Notes under the pieces: model-generated
What the model saw: the letters and a program-made list of their open reading frames with translations, nothing else
Databases searched by the model: none
Told to the model about the DNA's origin: nothing
Shown: one piece after another, positions 2,773 to 63,712 of the stretch
Layout: each line of letters opens with the position of its first letter
Numbering within the stretch: the stretch's first letter is position 1
From: Octopus vulgaris
Taxonomy: Eukaryota
NCBI GenBank assembly: GCA_951406725.2
Contig: OX597819.1
Span: 88,598,001-88,662,000, forward strand
DNA length: 64,000 nt
Reading direction: 5' to 3'
Position numbers and translations under genes: made by a program

Positions 2773-3530
2773 TGCGGCAACCGCCGAAAACTTTTAAAAA
2801 ACAGTGTTGTCACAACTGCCAACAACAACATTGCTCTCCACAAGAGCACATTTTTCATGTATAATTAATGGTTGAAATTAATTTCATGGTTGAAATTAAT
2901 ACAAATATACAAAAAATTAAATTTGTTCCCCACAAAACTGGGAAACCTATAAAAAAAGTTTTTCTCTCAAAGACGACAATAATATTTTTTAATAAAACAG
3001 TCCAAAAAAAAAAAAACTGTAAAACCGGTGAACAAAACAGTTCAACAATGTTCAACAACAAAATCCAATTGGTAATCCAACAATGAAACAACAGCAATAG
3101 CAACAACACAGCAAAAACGCTTACGGAGAGGAAGAAAAACAAGTCAAAACAGCAGTGAGGGAAGCAATCTTCTTTATTTCATATAATTTGCCACAGGGAC
3201 ATTACACAGATGGAAGCTTTGCGGGCTGGACATGGACATTAATGGTATGAATGATGGTGATGCAAAAATGATGATGATGGGAGAAGACGAAAAGTGCCCG
3301 CCGACTTTCGCTTCTCTAAAACATTGTTCTTTTTTTCTTTTTTTTTTAAAAAAACACAATGAGGCAATAAACCTCTTACACAGTTCAAAATTAAAAATAA
3401 AACACAAACACGAGGTAATAATCCTCTCACTTTTTACATTTTTAGTCTCTTTTTGAGGTAATACACCTCTTCAATTTTTCCGCCCGGCCAGGCTCCTCGC
3501 TTCATTGAAGCACCTGGTCCGTTCCGAACT

Positions 3531-4637
3531 TCAAGGTTTCAACATAAATCTGAAGGAATCCTTCGGGAAGGAGTTCGTTATCTTCCATAGATCGTTCTCC
3601 CATAAGACCTCCGCAGCCACCTGCGAAGGCCACTCAGGGTCCTCCGTGTAGGACAGAAGCCCCTCCCACCGGCACTTCCTTTCAATTTTTTGGATTTCAT
3701 TTTGCAAGGTTCCTCCCTTGTGGAAGAGGACCAAAAATTCCTCCTCCAGCAGCACACCCGCCAAAGGAGAATCGGGACACGCCGGCAGCGTGTCACAACC
3801 TGCCGGCAATGTCCCGTTTTTCTTTTTTTCTTCCCTTGGGCTGCGGGAGGGTGGTGTTCCCTTGCTGTGTCCAGTAGGTCCTCCTTTTCTCCCGCAGCTC
3901 TCGGGTTCTTCGGTGGGCAACCATTGTTGCCCACCTTTCGCTTTCGTTTTTTCGAGGAGGTGGAAACCTCCTCGACATCCTCCTCCTTCTCTCCCTCCAT
4001 TGAGGGAGCAGGAAGTGGTTCCTCTGTTAACTGTTCCAGGATCCTCTTTTGTCCTTGGGGCAGTTTTTCTTGATGTTGCCGGTCTCCAGGCACAGGTGAC
4101 ACTTGGAGGGGGGCGTCCCTCGAGCATCACCGGATACCTAGATCCGGCCATCCTCAAAAATTCTGGGAAAACCAGACTTTCGGCTGATTGGGTCCATAGG
4201 GTCAACACAGCTTTTGACCCCTCCCAATCAGCCGCAGGCAAAATTTTTACGTTGAGCAGCTTGGTACTGCTACCACCCAGACCCCGGCGAATAGAGTCCT
4301 CTATCCAATCGGGCCCAACTCCGGGTGGTAAACCGCAGATCCAAGCTTTCAATAATTTCTTTTCACAGTAGCTTGGAAGAAACATTATTTCATTCCCCTC
4401 GAGGGGCCGGCTTGCAAAATCGCAAGCTTCTTTGGGGGAGTCAAATAGCAACCAGACTGTTGCAAATTTGATTCCCCGTGAAATAAATTTAATAGCTGGC
4501 ATGTATTCTGCCAGCTCTTTCAAAATTGTGGCTTTGGGAAGACGGTTATGGTATCGAGCAATTTTGAATAAGTCCTCAACACCACCGTCTTCCTTTCGAG
4601 CTCTTTTAGCCATGATTTGGGAGGTGTTAATTCCCAC
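3531..4637 (-). mobile_element. ORF1/gag-like protein of an L1/Tx1-type non-LTR retrotransposon (frameshifted)
   Basis: RRM-like region (ICGLPP...LEGRPP) followed, after a frameshift near 4105, by a degenerate zinc knuckle KCHLCLETGNIKKNCP (CX2CX4[H>N]X4C); GC-richer than flanks. Confidence 0.65.
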
Positions 4638-6141
4638 ACTAATATTTCCTTTGCCATTTTTTTTTTTAATAAAAAGTTCAAATATAGTTCGTCAATACGT
4701 TTTCAAATAAAGAAAGATACACAAAAAAAGAAAGAAGACACAACAGAAGGGAAGAAAAAATAAAAGTAACAGTTCAAATAAAGTTCTTTTTTTTTTAATA
4801 AATGATAGCTGTGAAAAGAGAGTTCAAATCCAGGCAAAGAAATAAATTTTCGGCCGAAAGGTACTCCTGGCCAATTCTTTTAATCCACGTGGGCACAAAA
4901 ATTTTCAAATACAATTTATCACAATTATGTGAGACAACACACACGTCTCCGCCGCAAGGCAGACAAAAAGCTTCGAATTCAGTAAGGACTCCCTGCCTGT
5001 TCAAAAAATTAAAACCAACAGGCAACAAATCCTACCGGACTCAAAAAGCAAAAAGTCTTACCTTACAGCGTCTTTCAGTTCAACTTTCGCCAGCTGCATG
5101 CCAGCGTGACGACTTTTAACAGGTGCTGTTTTTGTTCTTTTTTCTTTTTAGGACGGAGTTCAGACCGAGGCGTCCTCTTAGTTCAAACAGAAGCAAGCTT
5201 CTTACCACACAGCCATTCCTGCGGGATGATCATTTTTATTGTTCTTATTTTTTTTTTATTTGACAAAAGAAAATTACCATCCGTAAATATGGAAATACCT
5301 AACAGAATTCTCCCTCAGTCTCACTTCTTCCAACTTCTCAGTTTGACTCGGTTTGCTTCTTTTCACCAACGTTGTCAAAGAGTTACGACGTATCTCCCTC
5401 TCTTTTCTTGACGCTTGCCACAGGAGTAACATTCGTCTCTTACATTCTCTACTCGGCAACTTTCAGAGAGGTAAATTCTCTTAGTGTCTCCTTCAGCCGC
5501 GTAGTAGTAAATGACAATGAACACAGGCACCTACACTATGGACAACAGAACTAGCCTTTATATACTAGTTTCAAATTCTGGCACAAGGCCAGAAAATTCA
5601 TGAGATGGGGTAAGTCTATTACATCGACACCAGTTCTCAACAGGTACTTATTTTATCGACCCCGAAGAGATGAAAGTCGAAGTCGACCTCAGTGGAATTT
5701 GAACTCGGAACGTAAAGACGGGCGAAATGCTGCTAAGCATTTTGCCCGGCTTGCTAACGGTTCTGCCAGCTCGACTCTTTAATACCGGTTTCAAATTTTG
5801 GAACAAGGCCAGCGTTTTCGAAAGAGGGGATAAGTCGATTACATCGCCCTCGGAGCTCAACTGGTACTTAATTTTTCGACACCCCAAAAGGGTGAAAGGC
5901 CAAGTCAACCCCCGCGGAATTTGAACGCGGAACGTAAAGATGGACCAAAAACCGTCGGGTATTTTACCCAGCGTACTAACGATTCTGTCAGCTCACTGCC
6001 TTCCAGCCTTTATATGTCAATAACTCGAAGTGGTCTTGCAACAGAAAAACAGCCATTTTAACTTCATTACTTCAGTCATCTAATCCATGGGCACGGGATT
6101 AACTAACATCTTTTCGTTACGTACCTCAGTATCATATAACC

Positions 6142-7406: not shown

Positions 7407-8389
7407 AAGATCATGTTTTCTTTTTTCTTTAGAAACTGATACTTCAAAGATACAAGATACTGTTTCCCAACACTTCTGAGATTATTTTATTTTGATAAGG
7501 AGCTATAATATGTTACTTGACCTTTAAATTGATAACAATGACTAAATTGGTTTCAACTACTAAACTGGAGACGTCAAGACTAAAGCGGAATGCCTGCACA
7601 CACTGCAGACAATCAAATTATAAACTACAGAAACCATGAAAATATTTATTAAAAATACAATAGGCGCAGGAGTGGTTGTGTGGTAAGTAGCTTGCTTACC
7701 AATTACATGGTTCCGGGTTCAGTCCCACTGCGTGTCACCTTGGGCAAGTATCTTCTACTTTAGCCTCGGGTCGACCAAAGCCTTGTGAGTGGATTTGGTA
7801 GACGGAAACTGAAAGAAGCCCATCGTATATATATATGTGGGGGGGGGTGTCTGTGTTTGGGATCTTTACCTTTTGACCTACAGATTTAAAAAATAAGATC
7901 ATGTTTTCTTTTTTCTTTAGAAACTGATACTTCAAAGATACAAAATACTGTTTCCCAACACTTCTGAGATTATTTTATTTTGATAAGGGGCTACAATATG
8001 TTACTTGACCTTTAAATTGATAACAATGACTAAATTGGTTTCAACTACTAAACTGGAGACGTCAAGACTAAAGCGGAATGCCTGCACACACTGCAGACAA
8101 TAAAATTATAAACTACAGAAACCATGAAAATATTTATTAAAAATACAATAGGCGCAGGAGTGGTTGTGTGGTAAGTAGCTTGCTTACCAATTACATGGTT
8201 CCGGGTTCAGTCCCACTGCGTGTCACCTTGGGCAAGTATCTTCTACTTTAGCCTCGGGTCGACCAAAGCCTTGTGAGTGGATTTGGTAGACGGAAACTGA
8301 AAGAAGCCCATCGTATATATATATGTGGGGGGGGGTTGTGTGTCTGTGTTTGGGATCTTTACCTTTTGACCTACAGATTTAAAAAATAA
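7407..8389. repeat. Tandem duplication, unit about 488 bp
   Basis: 7407-7894 is repeated nearly identically from 7895; unit includes a SINE 5' half and the first ~35 bp of the MITE TIR. Confidence 0.9.
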
Positions 8390-9275
8390 TTTTTTGTAAC
8401 TAAACTCTTTCAAACTTCGGACACTGGTAGAATGTGTCAAATAAAACATCTTTTACTGTTAGCATTTTTGAGAAAAACTTATATTAACGAAGTTATTTCA
8501 CGTTAAAGTTCTCGTATTTCGGTAATTTCAACCAATCAATGACGTGTGTTCAGCTGAATAAAATTACTGCTGTTGTTTTTCAGCAAGAACTTCCGGTGGT
8601 GTATATTTCGTTTGTCACTGTTAATTGTGACAACCCTAATCCTAAAACCTTAACCCAAACCCTAACTCTAAAATCCTAACCCTAACCCTAACACCCTAAC
8701 CCTAAAACCCTAACCCTAAAACCCTAACTCTAAAACCCTAACCCTAAAACCTTAAAACCAGTACAAACGCACGAACGATGTCACAAATAACAGTGACAAA
8801 CGAAAAATACACCGCCGATAGTTGTTGACAAACAACGGCAGTAATTTTATTCAGCTGAACACACGTTATTGATTGGTTGAAATTACCGAAATATGAGAAC
8901 TTTAACGTGAAATAACTTCGTAAATATAAGGTTTTCTCAAAAATGCTAAGAGTAAAAGATGTTTTATATGACACATTCTACCAGTGTCCGAAGTTTGAAA
9001 GTGTTTACTTACAAAAAATCATTTTTTAAATCTGTAGGTCAAAAGGTAAAGATCCTGTGTTTGTAATCCCACCCGCCCGCCCGCCCAACATCGCTTGACA
9101 ACCGATGTTGGTGTGTTTACGTCCCCGTAGCTTAGCGGTTCGGCAAAAGAGACTGATAGAATAAGTACTAGGCTTACAAAGAATAAGTCCTGGGGTCGAT
9201 TTGCTCGATTAAAGTCTGTGCTCCAGCATTGGCCGCAGTCGAATGACTGAAACAAGTAAAAGAGTAAAAGAGAAA
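8149..9275 (+). mobile_element. tRNA-derived SINE (family A, aggcgcaggagtgg...aagagta), split by the MITE at 8353-9055
   Basis: 5' half 8149-8352 and 3' half 9064-9275 join to match the intact copy at 35162-35563. Confidence 0.85.
8353..9055. mobile_element. MITE with ~280-bp TIRs and telomere-like (CCCTAA)n core
   Basis: GGATCTTTACC...GGTAAAGATCC termini, 8-bp TSD TGTGTTTG (8345-8352, 9056-9063), degenerate CCCTAA array at about 8632-8757. Confidence 0.9.
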
Positions 9276-9885
9276 GAGAGTATGGGGCAGGAGCGAGAGG
9301 ATTGGGAATCCTCTCCTCCTAGTAAATCCATATTCTTAAAAAGACGGCAAGAAAAAGACAAGGGGGCGGGAGAAGATTAACACTAAATCTCAGCCTAGTA
9401 CTAGGGTCATGGATTGTGCGTGGATGTAGCACAAGTGAGATAAAGAAGGGATAGATAGGGAGTGTGATGATGAGGAGAAGGATGGATGTGCTGGCAATGA
9501 GCGAGACAAAGATGAAAAGTAAGGGAGAGTATCAGTTTGTGGTTGTAACTGGACGAGTGTAGGGGGTGGTATTGCTGGTGAGTGGGCGTGTGAAGAAGAA
9601 TGTGGTGGAGTGGAGGGAAGTGTCTTCGAGGTTAATCTGGGTTAAGATGAGGTGAGGAGGAGAGATGTATGTTTTTTTTTTTAGTGAAAATGGTCCAGGG
9701 AGTGAAAGGAGTGAGGAAGGAGTAGAGGAGTTCTGGAGGGAACTGACAGAGTGTGCAGATAGGATGGGGAAAAGTGGTTATGTAGTGGTGTTGGGTGATT
9801 TGAATGCACGAGTGAGAAATGAGTAAGTAGAAAATGTAGTAGGAAGATATGGGGTCAGATCACTTCTTAGTACTGGGTAAGTTGA

Positions 9886-10318
9886 CGTTAGCACGCCGGG
9901 CGAAATGCTTAGCGGTATTTCGTCTGCCGCTACGTTCTGAGTTCAAATTCCGCCAAGGTCGACTTTGCCTTTCATCCTTTCGGGGTCGATTAAATAAGTA
10001 CCAGTTACGCACTAGGGTCGATATAATCGACTTAATCCGTTTGTCTGTCCGTGTTTGTCCCCTCTGTGTTTAGCCCCTTGTGGGTAATAAAGAAATAAGA
10101 AACGTTAGCACGCCGGGCGAAATGCTTAGCGGTATTTCGTCTGCCGCTACGTTCTGAGTTCAAATTCCGCCGAGGTCGACTTTGCCTTTCAACCTTTCGG
10201 GGTCGATAAATTAAGTACCAGTTACGCACTGGGATCGATGTAATCGACTTACTACCTTTGTCTATCTGTGTTTGTCCCCTCTGTGTTTAGCCCCTTGTGG
10301 GCAGTAAAGAAATAGGTA
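9886..10318 (+). mobile_element. SINE family B tandem dimer
   Basis: Two units containing gactttgcctttcatcctttcggggtcgat...aagtaccag (Meta-domain-like) and ending aaagaaata. Confidence 0.85.
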
Positions 10319-11054
10319 TGCTCAAAATGGAATGCTAGACGAGTGACAGGGTGGAGGGAGGTTGTGAAAGTGAGTGAACTGGATAGGAGAGAAAAGGAGC
10401 AGGGGTATGTAGAGAAACTGAGAGGTGAATATGAACAGGTTAAGAAACGGGAGGTAGGAGATGTGGAGGAGGAGTAGGAGGCTTTTAGAAAGGCAGTTAT
10501 GAGATGTGCCTCTGAGGTATGTGGTACACGAGTGACTGGAATGGGTGCGAGGAAGGGTAGTGAGTTGTGGAATGAGCAGGTAAGGGATGCGATGGCAGAG
10601 AAGAAAAAGGCCTTTGAAAAGTGGTTGCAGAAAGGAGATGGAGAGGCTTATGATCGCAACAGAGAAGTGAAGAGGACAGTAAAGTAAGTGGTGAGGGTAG
10701 CGAAATGGGAGGCGAGTGAAAGGTTCGGGAAAAAGTTGAGTGAAAATTTTGTAAGAACTCAAAGAAATGTTTTGGAAAGAGGTACAGAGAGTAAGAAAGG
10801 TGGTCGGAGGAAGGGAAGAAGGGGTGAAGGATGTAAATGGAAATTTGTTGAAAGGAAGTGAGGATGTACAAAGGAGATGAGCAGAGTATTTTAGTGAGCT
10901 GTTAAATGTGGAGGATGTTAGGGAGGCAAGTATAGTAGCTGTAGGGGAAGAGAGGAGAATACATGTTGTTGGGGAAAGGAACTATGGCGCAATTGGAAGA
11001 AAGGAGGTGAGAGAATCCCAGCGCAAGATGGTAAACCGGAAGACGCCAGGCTGG

Positions 11055-11686
11055 GCGTAACGCTTAGCGGTATTTCGTCTGCCGTTACGTTGTGAGTTCA
11101 AATATCGCCGAGGTCAACTTTGCCTTTCATCCTTTCGGGGTCGATAAATTAAGCACCAGTTACGCACTGAGGTCGATGTAATCGACTTAATCTGTTTGTC
11201 TGTCCTTGTTTGTCCCCTCTATGTTTAGCCCCTTGTGAGTAATAAAGAAATAGGTATTTCGTCTGCCGAAGGCGGCGAGCTGGCAGAATCGTTAGCACGC
11301 CGGGCGAAATGCTTAGCCGTATTTCGTCTGACGCTACGTTCTGAGATCAAATTCCACCGAGGTCGACTTTGCCTTTCATCCTTTCGGGGTCGATTAAATA
11401 AGTACCAGTTACGCACTGGGGTCGATATAATCGACTTAATCCGTTTGTCTGTCCTTGTTTGTCCTCTCTGAGTTTAGCCCCTTGTGGGTAGTAAAGAAAT
11501 AGGTATTTCGTCTGCCGCTACGTTCTGAGTTCAAATTCCGCCGAGGTCGACTTTGCCTTTCATCCTTTCGGGATCGATTAAATAAGTACCAGTTACGCAC
11601 TGGGGTCGATATAATCGACTTGATCCGTTTGTCTGTCCTTATTTGTCCTCTCTGTGTTTAGCCCCTTGGGTAGTAAAGAAATAGGT
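11055..11686 (+). mobile_element. SINE family B trimer/nested cluster
   Basis: Three units; the middle full-length copy 11269-11501 is flanked by the direct repeat ggtatttcgtctgccg. Confidence 0.85.
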
Positions 11687-12594
11687 ATAGATGAGTGTAC
11701 AGGGGAATGCCTAAAGAAAGGGGGAGTGACAGTGATTGAATGGTCAGTAAGGCTTATGAATGTGTAGTGCCTATATAGTGCCAGTGTAAAAGGGGAAAGG
11801 AGATAAATGTGTGGAAATTTTATGGGCATAAGTCTGTTGTGTGGTTGGTAAACTGTATGGGAGAATTCTGATTGTTAGGGTGAGGAACCAAAGAGTATAC
11901 TAGAAGAGGAGCAGTGTGGTTTTATGAGTAGAAATAGGGTACAGATCAAATATTTGTAGCAAGACAGATGTGTGAGAAGTTTTCGGCAAAAAGGAAGAAC
12001 GTGTATTGGGCCTTTATGGGCATAGATAAGGCATATGACCAAGTGGATAGGAATGCAATGTGGCTGGTGTTGCGGTTGTATGGAGTAGGTGGTAGATCTT
12101 TGAGAGCTGTTCAGAGTTTCTATAGACTATATCTTGTGGCATTTTACAGAAATAAATGTTCCAGAGTGTGAATTACATGGTTCGTACAAAAATAATTTAC
12201 TCCAGAGGTAAGTAGTATTTGAACCCGGTCAAACTAAGGCGTTTGACCCGGTCATAAAAACAAAAACAAAAACAAAAAAAATAGTGTGGTAGATATTAAA
12301 CTACTTCCTCTAAACGAATATGACAAAAAAGTGCGCGCTCGCGAAAGGGGGTGGAGGAGAGGCCTCGGAAAATTCACATCGTGAATTTCCGAAAGCGTCT
12401 GAGGGTCTGACCCGGGCACAAAAACAACAAAAAAATAGTGTAATATATGTAAAAACAACTTGCTCTAAACGAATATGCTCTATAGAAAAATTAATGCGAC
12501 ATGTGCAACCGGTGTCAACTACCATTTATTTTTGTTAATATTTATTCCAGATATTTACTTCGTAAATAAATTAATAGAATTCAATAATTATAAC

Positions 12595-16008: not shown

Positions 16009-16417
16009 GCTGGCAGAAGCGTTAGTAAGCCGGGCGAAATACGTAGCCGTATTTCGTCGGCCGTTACATTTTGAGTTCAAATACCGCCGAGGTCGACTTT
16101 GCCTTTCATCCTTTCGGGGTCGATAAATTAAGTATCAGTTACGTACTGGGGTCGATGTAATCGACTTAATCCGTTTGTCTGTCCTTGTTTGTCCTCTCTG
16201 TGTTTAGCCCCTTGTGGGTAATAAAGAAATAGGTATTTCGTCTGCCGCTACGTTCTGAGTTCAAATTCCGCCGAGGTCGACTTTGCCTTTCATCCTTTCG
16301 GGGTCGATAAATTAAGTATCAGTTACGTACTGGGGTCGATGTAATCGACTTAATCCGTTTGTCTGTCCTTGTTTTGTTCCCTCCGTGTGTAGCCCCTTGC
16401 GGGCAGTAAAGAAATAA
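16009..16417 (+). mobile_element. SINE family B tandem dimer
   Basis: Full unit starting aaggcggcgagctggcagaa plus a second unit starting at ggtatttcgtctgcc (16232). Confidence 0.85.
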
Positions 16418-17944: not shown

Positions 17945-18345
17945 TATCGTTAACACGTCGGGCGAAATGCCGAGCGGTATTTCGTCTGCCGTTACGTTGT
18001 GAGTTCAATTTCCGCCGAGGTCGACTTTACCTTTCATCCTTTCGGGGTCGATAAATTAAGTACCAGTTACGCACTGGGGTCGATGTAATCGACTTAATAC
18101 CTATGTCTGTCCTTGTTTGTCCCTTCTATGTTTAGCCCCTTGTGGGTAATAAGGAAATGGGTATTTCGTCTGCCGTTACGTTGTGAGTTCAATTTCCGCC
18201 GAGGTCGACTTTGCCTTTCATCCTTTCGGGGTCGATAAATTAAGCACCAGTTACGCACTGAGGTCGACATAATCGACTTAATCCGTCTGTCTGTCCTTGT
18301 TTGTCCCCTCTGTGTTTAGCCCCTTGTGGGTAGTAAAGAAATAAG
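17945..18345 (+). mobile_element. SINE family B tandem dimer
   Basis: Two units, junction at about 18160. Confidence 0.85.
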
Positions 18346-32273: not shown

Positions 32274-32739
32274 AGATTTAGATATCCAGTTTTATTCTGC
32301 AGTCTATCACATCTTTCTTATGTTTCTGCTGCAACTCAGTGCACATGGCAAAATTTTGAACCTTGGTGTGCATTTTGGTGTTAATTTCCACTTTAGAGTG
32401 TTATTAACTACATTTCTGAATTAAAAACAAGTTCAATCAAAATGCATCACGCACATGGTGTTAGTATTCTAAAAATAGTCTATATTCTGACCTTTTCAAC
32501 TCTGCTGGTTAAAAAAACAAGTGACAAGCTATCCAAGAATGGGTCTGTAGTCAGCAAATGTATTTTTATCCTTTTGAATGGTAGTATATTTTGTATCAGG
32601 TCGCTTAGTGTATGTTGATGTTACTATTGTTACTATTATTATCATCCCTATCACTACTACTCCTACTACTCTTATTACTATTATTGTTAATAATGAGCTA
32701 TTGTTCTATTTAATTTGCTAATTTTATAATTAAATTAAA

Positions 32740-42722: not shown

Positions 42723-43064
42723 GTAAGTAGTATCATAAATTTTCTTTTTCATTTTTCTTCAAAAATTAAATACAAATACAACACTGACTTTCTGGATACT
42801 GTTGATCCAGAACCTCTAATAATCCACACCAATTTACAAGCAGGAACTTCAAATTCTCACGGCCACCAGATTAGTTTACAGGATTGTTGCATAGATTAGT
42901 ATACCTTGCAAAGTACACTATCAATGAACTTGTATCATTATACAGGTATCTATATTTCATTTAATTATACTGTGTAACACTATTTTTGCCCTTGGGTAGC
43001 AGCTGTTATTTCCTAGAAAGTGTAAAAAATTACTAACATTTTCTTCCAACTTTGTTTTTACAAT

Positions 43065-43207
43065 TGCAGCGTGGAAGGTGTTTATAAGCCATTTAAGAAA
43101 CACACAAAAGCCGTTCAATTCACTCCAACATTTAAGTTTAATTTGTCAAAATATTTTCGGCGCTAAAATCCGCGACCTGTTCACTGACAAAAATCCGTGC
43201 TGCATCT
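43065..43207 (-). mobile_element. 143-bp non-autonomous element with a hammerhead ribozyme, 15-bp TSD
   Basis: Flanked by CTTTGTTTTTACAAT at 43050-43064 and 43208-43222. Confidence 0.75.
43142..43191 (-). ncRNA. Minimal type I hammerhead ribozyme with G3-C8 core variant
   Basis: Minus strand: UUUGUCA-GUGAACA-GGUCGC-GGAUUUUA-GCGCC-GAAA-AUAU-UU-UGACAAA; 7-bp stem I, palindromic stem III AAUAUU. Confidence 0.65.
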
Positions 43208-44999
43208 CTTTGTTTTTACAATATTTATTCAAACCCCAAAGAAACCCTCTCAACACATTGCCATGATGCTCCCCAACTATTCTTGCTCATAATCAGAGAT
43301 ATACATATCGTCAGCCACTAAGGGACATGCTCAAGTGGTTAAGGTCAAGCAAATCTATAGTATTGAGCAGAATATTTACCTTAACAATATTTCTGCTTCA
43401 GCAACTCCTGAATCTGTCTGAAATGTAATGAAAAATAGGTCAGTTTCAAAACATTGATGTCCAGGATTACTAAATAGAAGCAAATAGGAAATAACACTTA
43501 CTGACCAAAGTCAAAAATTAATATTTTGTTATATAAGTAAATTTAATATTTGAGTGTGTTCACCAAGGTGACTACCCCTGATTCAGAAAAGACTGTAAAC
43601 TGGAAAATTTTTAGAACTTAGGGTTCCTAAAAATGGATGTTGTATCTACATTTATTAAATCATACTACACTTTTGATAAGCTTGTCAATCCTGGTCAAGT
43701 AAACCTATGATAAAAGTCATTCCAGCCATGACCATTTTGTTCTTTTTTTAAGGGTGTCTGACATTACATTGTCATATATATCCTTTTCCTAAAAACAGCA
43801 GGGTAGAATGAGAGATTTAGATGCTCTTTCTAACAGCTTGAGGGATTATATAAAAACTCCCTCATTGGCTCAGCCGTGAATAAATATGTGCAGGGAACCT
43901 ATAGTAGAGGAAGACCTGGGACAAGGTGGTGAAGCATGATCTTTGAACTTTGGGCCTCGTGGAGGTAATGACTAGTGACTGAGACCTTTGACTATGTCAT
44001 GCTTAAGACCCATCAAGCCAAGTGAAACCATTGTCATAGCAGATACTGGTGTCACGCAACTGGTACCCATGCCAGTGGCACATTAAAAGCACCCATTACA
44101 TTCTGAGTAGTTGACATTAGGAAGGATATCCAGCTGTTGAAACCATGCCAAATTGGACTGGAGTCTGGTGCAGCCCCTCAGCTTGCCAGCCTTGGTCAAA
44201 CCATCCAATCCATGCCAGTATGGACAACAGAGGTTAAGTGATGATGATGATGTACCAACTTATTTTTAGCTCATTTTTATACTGAGAATACAACAAGCCT
44301 CCCCTCTCATATTGGTCACTCAACCTACTAGGGATACCAGCCAAATTTTCACTCTTGAAAGGAGGATATTTTGGACAAAATATTTGACACCACAAAGTGG
44401 TAATGGTCCCTCTTTCCATACATAATTAGTGAGTTTTAATTGCTCTTTTTAGCAGGTAATGTAACCCCACTGGATCATTTGATCAACAATGTATTATTCT
44501 ACTGTTGCATTAAAATAAGCAATACAAAATTTATCAACAATTTCAGATAAAATAACTTTACATAACTTCATCTGTTCTCTGTTTTATAAAACACTATGGA
44601 TTTAATGACCTCATACTTCATTCATTGTCAACTGATATATTAGTGTGTATACCTTGGCCTGTGACTGAACTCAGTATATCAATATTTCAAGCAGTTTCCA
44701 TACTCTTACCAACTTTATTATATCTGCAAACTCTCAATCCCATCAACTTTGTAATACACTGAAGATCAAATAAGAAATTAATACCAAATTTTGAATAGAA
44801 ACTTTAAAAGAAAAATTGTGTTAAAGTTAACATTTATTACCTTAATTTATTATACTTTGGTATAAAAAAATTATGAATAACAGGTTTTTCAAGAGGTTCA
44901 TGCATAAGTAACTGATTATCTAAAAACTTTAATTATAATTTTAAAATTCATTGCATGTCTAGTTATCCCTTGTAAGGCATCAGTGCACTGCAGTACAAT

Positions 45000-59713: not shown

Positions 59714-60434
59714 CCATAAAACTTTAGCGTGCTGAGTTTTGCAAAAATTCGGAAGCTTGGATTTCTCTTCTCTTTAATTGCTCTCTATAGATTTTTTGCT
59801 TGTTTTTGTAAAAACAAGCTGTAAAAACTGTTATGTAAGTTAGTTATATAACAGTTCATTCTAACAAGTACTATTTAATAGTGCATCAACAAGATACCCC
59901 CACCTTGGAACAGTGTCATCAATAAACATTCTACATTTCAACAACTCAATGCTTCGCTTCTGAGAAAGGGAGATAGCTGACACATTACATACATACTCTT
60001 AGCAGTTTGAAAATAGGGAAAACTTTCTGGAGTTCGTTTTTTCTCTACTCTTATTGTTTAGTTTTCTGTGTACAGTTCCCCATGTATTATCCCCAAATAT
60101 GAGCCTGATTACTGCCTTATGAGTTTATATTGAGATAAAAATTATAATTTCATAGATTCTAGTGAGGTGGTAATTGCCTAACCAATTTTTTCTCTTTTGC
60201 TTTTTCTTTAATGCATATCTCAGTTTTTTGGGGGTTTTTTGTTTAAAAAAATGAATACGTCCGAATTTTTTTATAAACACAATGGTTGCTCCTACATTCA
60301 GAATGTTAGGAGAGACTAGGTTGGAAAAAATATTAAGAAACTGTGTTATGAGGTTAGCAGCGTCGTTTAACATCAACTGTGACGGCGCGTGGTTTAGGGG
60401 TTGGGTGAGAATAACGTTAAGAGTACATGTACCT

Positions 60435-60850
60435 ATTTCTTTACTACCCACAAGGGGCTAAACACAGAGAGGATAAACAAGGACACACAAACGGATTAAG
60501 TCGATTATATCGACTCCAGTGCGTAACTGATACTTATTTAATCAACCCCGAAAGGATGAAAGGCAAAGTCGACCTCGGCGGAATTTGAACTCAGAACGTA
60601 GCGGCAGAAGTAATACCTATTTCTTTACTACCCACAAGGGGCTAAACACAGAGAAGACAAATAAGGACACACAAACGAATTAAATCGATTATATCGACTC
60701 CAGTGCGTAACTGATACTTATTTAATCAACCCCGAAAGGATGAAAGGCAAAGTCGACCTCGGCGGAATTTGAACTCACAATGTCACGGCAGACGAAATAC
60801 CGCTAAGCATTTCGCCCGGTGTCCTAACGTTTCTGCCAGCTCGCCGCCTT
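60435..60850 (-). mobile_element. SINE family B dimer with TSD
   Basis: Two units flanked together by AGAGTACATGTACCT/AGAGTACATATACCT. Confidence 0.85.
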
Positions 60851-62763: not shown

Positions 62764-63371
62764 TATTATTATTCGGGTCACTACCTGAAATCAAACTCGA
62801 GACAACAGGGTTGGAAGTTCATGTTGTTGTTATGCCTAGTGTGCCATATATTTGGGGGGTGGGGATGTTGTACTAATGAATGTCTAAAAAAAAAAAAAAG
62901 TTTTTTTTTTTTTTTTTTTTTTTTTAAACCGAAAATTATGTTTGTTTTAAACCTTGAGATTACATAGAGAGTATTTTGCGTAGGATATGAGCAGTTCCCA
63001 TGAGCACAATCTTTTGAACTTCTGCCATTTTTGGGTTTCCTGGTATCTGAGTTAGGTAGCTATCAGCCCCTTTTGCTATCATTCCCAGGGCACCTATGAC
63101 AACAGGTATTGTTTTAGTCTTCAGCTTCCACATTTTGCTGATTTCTATTTCAAGATCTTTATATTTGCTTAGTTTTTGGTAGGTCTTGACAGATACGTTT
63201 ATATCGATTGGGACAGTCATATCAATGAGGAGGCATGTTCTTTGTTTGAAGTCTTTCAATATGATGTCTGGCCTATTTGCATCTATCTTCCTGTCAGTTT
63301 GAATGGTGAAGTTCCAGAGGAGTGAGATGTGGTCATTTTCAAGCACTGGGGGTGGTTTGTGTTCCCACCAG

Positions 63372-63429
<58 letters not shown>

Positions 63430-63712
63430 TATTATTATTCGGGTCACTACCTGAAATCAAACTCGGAATCTTGAGGTTAGTTAAGAGCATGGGTTACTAA
63501 CCCCAAGATTCTGAGTTTGATTCCAGGCAGTGACCTGAATAATAATAATAATAATAATGATGATGATGATAATTACATAGAAAAGTACCTTAGGAATGAA
63601 AACTTAGATTTGAAATTTCCCCAAGACACCTGATAAAGGCTGGAGGGTATATCAGCCAAAATGTTGTGTTAACACCAAACAAGATGAGAACAAATATCCG
63701 TCAAATGTAAAT
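62521..63712. mobile_element. Composite palindromic HHR/PLE-like element with 12-bp TSD
   Basis: TSD AAGGGTTCTTTA (62509-62520, 63713-63724); empty site visible in paralog 1 intron near 19485; inverted arms match 29815-30088. Confidence 0.85.
62799..63375 (-). mobile_element. R4/Dong-clade non-LTR retrotransposon 3' fragment (restriction-like endonuclease)
   Basis: ORF WNFTIQTDRKIDANRPDIILKD...LLIDMTVP...KLSKYKDL...IPVVIGALG with PD..D REL motif; flanked by (TAA)n, the known Dong target type. Confidence 0.85.

Follow-up and report, generated by a model that had tools for sequence, protein, structure and literature searches.

A natural G3-C8 hammerhead core in a short Octopus vulgaris insert that appears to be the end of a young Penelope-like element

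The tertiary Watson-Crick pair between positions C3 and G8 of the hammerhead ribozyme (HHR) is established by structure and by engineered swaps. A natural compensatory core change, U3-A8, is known (PMC3088659); in the published literature, of which our coverage is incomplete and in which an earlier example is possible, we found G3-C8 only as an engineered variant and no natural case. Among Penelope-like elements (PLEs), reverse transcription is initiated internally, at two places within the start of the open reading frame (ORF), with uncut RNA as template, the nuclease prefers ATT, the HHR needs the element's protein, and a C3G/G8C double mutant partly rescues the HHR (Frangieh et al. 2024, PMC11167929). 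Here, we describe a 143-bp insert which, to judge from its sequence, comprises the HHR and the nine initial codons from one end of a young PLE encoding a reverse transcriptase (RT) and a GIY-YIG endonuclease, and whose hammerhead core carries the full G3-C8 swap.

The insert lies in the window, by which we mean the whole stretch of 64,000 nucleotides analysed, and is enclosed by two identical 15-mers at 43050-43064 and 43208-43222, a repeat that is not extendable on either side; the perfect 15-bp duplication claimed in a sequence-only reading of this DNA is thus real. The same reading had placed a complete type I hammerhead with a GUGAACA core on the minus strand, and stem I, core, stem II, GAAA, AAUAUU and U16.1-U17 could all be located, with G3 at 43184 and C8 at 43179. 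The individual features are the following.

43050..43064, no strand: target-site duplication, copy at the 3' end of the element (exact 15-mer match)
43208..43222, no strand: target-site duplication, copy at the 5' end of the element (exact 15-mer match)
43065..43207, minus strand: short PLE insertion, made up of the last part of the pLTR (5' UTR with hammerhead) and the ORF start
43204..43207, minus strand: 5'-end hotspot of the family (+1, AG), likely transcription start (cap site), with a splice-acceptor-like site as the rival
43185..43191, minus strand: hammerhead stem I, 5' strand (UUUGUCA, pairing with UGACAAA over 7 bp)
43178..43184, minus strand: core positions 3-9, GUGAACA, with G3 at 43184 and C8 at 43179
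43159..43177, minus strand: extra G (43177), then stem II and loop II, the window copy having the GCGCC variant
43155..43158, minus strand: G12, A13, A14 and A15.1
43150..43155, minus strand: palindromic stem III, AAUAUU (A15.1 to U16.1), predicted dimer interface
43148..43149, minus strand: predicted cleavage site after U17 (43149), from hammerhead numbering
43142..43148, minus strand: hammerhead stem I, 3' strand (7 bp)
43065..43092, minus strand: beginning of the PLE ORF, with the start codon at 43092 and nine codons reading MAYKHLPRC

The core has U4, G5 and A6, A9, G12, A13 and A14, the pair A15.1-U16.1 and a base other than G at position 17, and positions 3 and 8 form a Watson-Crick pair, which is G3-C8 here and C-G or U-A in relatives. 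Stems I and II surround the core and the motif ends in stem I, as seen in the minimum free energy (MFE) fold, in pair probabilities and in covariation across lineages; the 50-nt HHR folds into these two stems (MFE -12.5, z -2.3), and the fold of the whole 143-nt insert is unremarkable (z -0.5). An extra G stands between A9 and G10.1, as in PLE hammerheads, and the PLE ORF begins at nucleotide 116 of the insert (window 43092). Stem II reads GCGCC in the window copy and GCGAC in the family (GCGCC occurs in 1 of the 100 matches listed), and the window copy is predicted to fold in a shifted register (G9a-C11.1 probability 0.9). A strict descriptor, allowing any Watson-Crick 3-8 pair and requiring a stem I of at least 7 bp, matched once on the two strands of the window and in none of 30 dinucleotide shuffles of it; besides the insert, the window holds no further copy of the G3 family. 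Rfam gave nothing at the gathering score anywhere in the window, and no hammerhead at E<=5 in four loci, three of which are canonical C3-G8, so the swap alone cannot account for the miss; this result lowers the standing of the motif as a member of Rfam and not the prediction that it works like a hammerhead. The literal CUGANGA consensus does not match the window HHR, and the earlier suggestion that searches built on it pass over the motif was right. Elsewhere, the window contains tandem units of ~184 bp of a very common SINE-like repeat (9885-11700, 16084-16375, 17976-18333 and 60430-60780), open frames resembling pieces of other retroelements (3534-4691, 10325-10981 and 62963-63493, all minus strand) and a direct duplication of ~490 bp (7407-8390).

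One earlier proposal, that the insert represents a minimal non-autonomous ribozyme retroelement family, did not survive comparison with the genome, where the 143 nucleotides correspond to the pLTR end of an ORF-bearing PLE. Searching the 2.8 Gb genome with the insert gave 1,186 first-look candidates, and many of the 40 scored were 97-99% identical. The insert is 97% identical to the matching part of two ORF-bearing copies (L068 and L070) and 95.9-96.6% identical to both pLTRs of another (L067), and the flanks of the top 30 matches show a longer element on both sides: upstream of the HHR unit come ~1.2 kb of repeat-rich 3' UTR and then the GIY-YIG/RT ORF, and downstream the copies continue into the ORF start. 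All 12 of the 12 fetched loci found by an endonuclease fragment read on into the HHR unit. Near-complete copies (L067, L068) run from an HHR-pLTR through an ORF of ~1,100 codons to a second HHR-pLTR, and thus have a pLTR with an HHR inside at both ends, the ORF of L068 starting within the HHR unit. This single ORF encodes an RT, with visible DKSG, DVVSLYPS and YVDD motifs, followed by a CX3CX2C linker and, at the C-terminus, a GIY-YIG domain that Pfam recognises above its cut-off (E 1.7e-5). Pfam returned no match on a 654-aa fragment and only a weak RT match in one relative, a search of solved structures gave weak RT matches only, and the closest named protein is an Octopus vulgaris hypothetical protein (98% identical). 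Short and long copies carry common subfamily markers, and the young and the older subfamilies each include ORF-bearing members. In one copy (L070:2971-5991, minus strand) the RT has ~60 extra, IFD-like residues between motifs A and B and the endonuclease is C-terminal; the insertion is common to a sister family and may mark an undescribed PLE subclade. A 53-bp match (83%) to the ORF of the sister element lies in the window itself (32631-32683), and at another locus (L033, ~3080-3300) a sister-family pLTR is inverted directly behind a G3-family copy, across a TA repeat.

The swap is a property of the family. A core pattern with positions 3 and 8 left free matched 7,405 times in the genome, compared with 2 matches for the reversed control, so the copies of the motif number thousands; both G3 and C8 are kept, in 94 of the first 100 matches listed, and the stems covary across related PLE families, which supports the sequence-only reading on these points. 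Loop II defines four successive subfamilies, and G3-C8 is the majority state in each, the mean divergence of G3-C8 copies being 1.6, 2.4, 3.7 and 6.9%. C3 is present in only 29 core-pattern matches (19 C3.C8, 9 C3-G8 and 1 C3.A8), from which all nine C3-G8, the single C3.A8 and eight of the C3.C8 copies were fetched. The C3.C8 copies fetched are point variants of the G3 family; the nine C3-G8 copies and the C3.A8 copy come from other, related PLE lineages, with a different sequence behind the HHR. We therefore rejected the possibility that the nine C3-G8 matches are an ancestral subfamily of the G3 family, and since they belong to other lineages, these have the 18-nt context in common with the G3 family, positions 3 and 8 being the only ones in it that differ. 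One such relative, a young sister family, has intact ORFs of 1,309 aa, is 55% identical to the G3 family over RT-EN and has a C3-G8 core, with compensatory changes in which A-U replaces G-C in stem II and C-G replaces U-A in stem I. Further relatives were sought in metagenomic data (37 loci, with 20 flanks from 15 loci long enough to scan). An HHR lies behind the ORF in five loci, two C3-G8 and three U3-A8 (L134, L151, L152), each of which has the extra G as well as a perfect palindrome, and 14 of the 20 scanned flanks had no parsed HHR; four HHR matches scored at least 7, versus a shuffle mean of 0.33 (0.07 when a Watson-Crick 3-8 pair is demanded). Three different Watson-Crick 3-8 pairs thus occur within one PLE group. 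In an RT tree of 20 rows, rooted by midpoint only, the G3 family stands beside the C3-G8 sister (99/97 support) and the other states lie outside. Because the related families with the same context in this genome are C3-G8, because the metagenomic relatives are C3-G8 or U3-A8, and because the tree nests the G3 family beside a C3-G8 sister, G3-C8 is most simply seen as a true, derived compensatory swap. U17 is common to the G3 and sister families and would avoid a G3-C17 mispair; G3-C8 is stated to work better without C17 in PMC3884650, with data not shown there.

How short copies such as the insert arise can be approached from their ends, which we scored in 78 loci selected by their core pattern and by order along the chromosomes, representing older subfamilies, after seven duplicates were dropped. 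The 5' end falls between +1 and +20 in 74 of the 78, three running upstream, and the 3' end at +143-151 in 28 and at +195-207 in 38, so that 66 of the 78 end at one of two sites, like an optional 3' tail. An inverted partner arm accompanies 48 loci, as expected of PLEs, and a same-strand neighbour only one, which argues against tandem arrays of the retrozyme kind. In 26 inverted pairs the two arms agree in class; in three others (L085, L091 and L093, around 1350-1650) the arms come from different subfamilies, with several loop II differences, and such mixed arms suggest two RNA templates in one event. Two other copies (L012, L018) have duplications of 11-14 bp. We also considered that short copies might begin at the cut site of the ribozyme, and rejected this since at most 2 of the 100 copies listed break there.

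In LINE-1 work, a 5' G that the template does not encode is usually the sign that a cap has been reverse-transcribed. Of 26 distinct fetched junctions, 16 have G as the base before the AG start, at a place where C or T stands in the template (p 9e-5 against 25%). A hand tally of the 100 listed matches, which excluded 44 that run upstream and 13 CATG-variant copies, the latter as possibly unrelated, gave G in 28 of 43. Nine of these 28 junctions could have been templated by an inverted arm, and the remaining 19 of 34 still give p 1e-4.

We consider it probable that the insert as a whole is a PLE end-piece with a G3-C8 hammerhead, copied from the 5' end of an uncut mRNA. The PLE protein would nick AT-rich DNA and then take its own mRNA, uncut at the 5' end, as template, with reverse transcription beginning at an internal site and running as far as the 5' start, which is likely capped; where a transcript from +1 has the internal start near its 5' end, a complete copy of 145-210 nt would result. 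ATTGT (43060-43064), the part of the duplication next to the 3' end of the insert, also fits the family sequence (a 148-nt match), which makes a 5-nt microhomology at the 3' junction, and 5 bp of pairing between target and RNA at ATTGT may have primed the window copy. Position +1 would be the transcription start and the G preceding it a copied cap. The double swap may have been fixed because the hammerhead fold is under selection, with a ribozyme that would be slow to cut, would act as a dimer joined at the palindrome and would probably be helped by the element's protein, and with cutting likely not needed for a given jump. ORF-family membership, the two 3' ends (~+143-151 and +195-207), the 5' cluster (+1 to +20) and the inverted arms were observed, as were the target-site duplication, the family-wide G3-C8 pair and the canonical C3-G8 sister lineages, and the reading fits PMC11167929, where internal initiation at two ORF-start sites and an uncut RNA template are reported.

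The HHR is predicted to self-cleave after U17, and its palindromic AAUAUU stem III fits the dimer-forming type of PLE hammerhead to which it had been likened. The active double hammerhead is predicted at -27.2 kcal/mol against -26.6 kcal/mol for two monomers, a gain of 0.6 kcal/mol, and an over-extended palindrome duplex of 10 bp, in which A13, A14 and U17 are buried, exceeds the active dimer in stability (-29.6 kcal/mol). Mismatched G3.G8 copies number 243, compared with 169 for A8 plus T8 and 19 for C3.C8. Among 11 scorable inverted pairs of G3.G8 copies, G8 is on both arms in four and C8 on the inverted arm in seven. G3.G8 accounts for 10 of 100 copies in the oldest class and for none of the 100 listed in the P and M classes; its divergence compares with that of G3-C8 at 4.0 vs 3.7% in the P class and 8.4 vs 6.9% in the O class. 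A clean ancestral G3.G8 subfamily is not supported, the copies being spread over subfamilies and not clearly older. Only 6 of the 243 (compare L227-L256) lie on the largest contig, so duplicated segments of smaller contigs may house many of them. These copies may stem from a master that jumped despite its mismatch, from a copying hotspot or from segments that were duplicated. In the sister family (L170:1637-1680, L169-L176), the conserved position 9 is C in 95 of the 100 listed of 3,378 matches, and older relatives have A9. Because of the 243 G3.G8 copies and this A9C change, selection on catalysis may be weak, and the evidence suggests that cutting is not needed to jump.

Two further readings build on such signs. 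In one, which is unlikely in our judgement, the hammerhead would be an RNA-pairing module: two element RNAs would be joined by the palindromic stem III in one particle, both would be copied per insertion to give inverted arms of mixed subfamily, and the common short inserts would be 'strong-stop' copies from the internal start to the cap. If this were true, the genome would hold a dated record of a core passing from C3-G8 through G3.G8, which still jumped, to G3-C8. In the other, distinctly improbable, the hammerhead would be catalytically dead or nearly so and kept as a folded or dimerising module, which would pair two RNAs per particle or control how the ORF, lying 56 nt beyond the cut site, is translated, with a swap that preserves shape and not cutting. 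The excess of G3.G8 (243) over the mirror change C3.C8 (19), the fixed A9C of the sister family, the lack of copies derived from cut RNA and the mixed-subfamily arms of L085, L091 and L093, which fit two RNA templates per insertion, would all suit a dead hammerhead; yet the catalytically active fold includes the 3-8 pair, the majority state in every parsed lineage is a Watson-Crick 3-8 pair, U4, G5, A6, G12, A13 and A14 are kept in all of them, and other PLE hammerheads cut weakly in vitro (PMC4209133, PMC11167929).

Our preferred reading, copying of an uncut mRNA from its capped start, takes +1 as the start of transcription, and there is only a small chance that this hotspot is instead a 3' splice site, with short copies made from spliced RNA that has a tiny first exon, as with the intron of Drosophila virilis Penelope. 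The sequence upstream of +1 does resemble a branch point, pyrimidine tract and AG, and in D. virilis the 5' end of helix I is where the intron stops (PMC4209133); that intron is located 46 bp after the start site (PMC2377424). The copies, however, retain the AG itself; despite the acceptor-like sequence before +1, no spliced junction was found among the 100 listed matches, nor any retrocopy joined to the candidate donor ~250 nt upstream, and the 56 of these matches that do not continue upstream have no recurrent upstream exon. In the young subfamily, TATAWAWR is matched between -30 and -23 relative to the hotspot (L067:2690-2719), which also speaks for a transcription start, weakly, as the region is TA-rich and the stretch overlaps the branch-point and splice-acceptor-like sequence. 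That the 143-210 bp unit is a separate, non-autonomous retrozyme-like element, spreading from its own transcripts with the PLE protein, has very little to recommend it: short copies have fixed ends and outnumber ORF-bearing ones (9,568 matches to the 3'-side pattern of the HHR, compared with first-look candidates numbering 366 for the endonuclease fragment and 68 for the upstream RT fragment), and animal retrozymes do derive from pLTRs (bioRxiv 10.64898/2026.07.22.740005), but in ORF-bearing copies the end of the pLTR is collinear with the unit, young and older subfamilies alike have such coding members, a same-strand neighbour is present in 1 of 78 loci, and copies do not begin at the cut site as circular or cleaved monomers would predict.

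In the octopus family the full G3-C8 swap is fixed in an animal retroelement of high copy number and recent activity, and the genome also holds canonical sister families. The G3 family and its C3-G8 sister allow a clean natural comparison of what selection maintains in PLE hammerheads, the end statistics (a fixed capped-like 5' end, two 3' ends, none at the cut site, and arms of mixed subfamily) make the mechanism of PLE insertion partly testable, and descriptors of the CUGANGA type miss thousands of motifs in one genome.

The closest known systems include the minimal or dimeric type I PLE-pLTR hammerheads of Cervera and de la Pena (2014, PMC4209133), with which the insert shares the pLTR position, the extra nucleotide between 9 and 10.1, G10.1-C11.1, a short palindromic stem III, mostly single dispersed motifs from truncated copies and inverted neighbours. 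It differs in its G3-C8 pair, as C3-G8 and U3-A8 are the only states reported there, in the inserted base, which is G here and H (not G) in their consensus, and in a longer stem I (7 bp). The Poseidon element PAc of Anolis (Frangieh et al. 2024, PMC11167929) resembles it in an HHR that adjoins the ORF start, two internal RT starts giving a 'tail', AT-rich targets and no sign of cut RNA as template, and its engineered C3G/G8C double mutant is the state that the G3 family carries naturally. The octopus element belongs to a different clade from PAc, with a Zn-finger linker and with RT motifs A and B set apart by a long insertion; its tail is ~60 nt, as opposed to 30-40 bp in PAc, and its start codon comes after the HHR and not within it. 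In protein features it approaches the C-terminal EN+ PLE clades Nematis and Neptune (Craig et al. 2021, PMC8557442): the RT is followed by a CX3CX2C linker and GIY-YIG, the linker CQSNCAVC fits the CX2-5CXXC pattern before GIY-YIG and its short spacing resembles the Nematis rows of their Fig. S2, and the preference for (TA)n and the partial tandem and inverted structure are alike. It is set apart by the ~60 residues added between motifs A and B of the RT, a trait that their Fig. S1 has in Naiad, Chlamys and telomerases and not in the canonical PLE rows. Non-LTR retrozymes (bioRxiv 10.64898/2026.07.22.740005) are likewise small, ORF-less and pLTR-derived, with a type I HHR, but here there are no head-to-tail arrays, the ends are not set by the cut site and every part maps onto an ORF-bearing element. 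The natural U3-A8 covariation (Perreault et al. 2011, PMC3088659) is likewise a compensatory 3-8 change; G3-C8 needs two transversions and is not among the natural variants described there.
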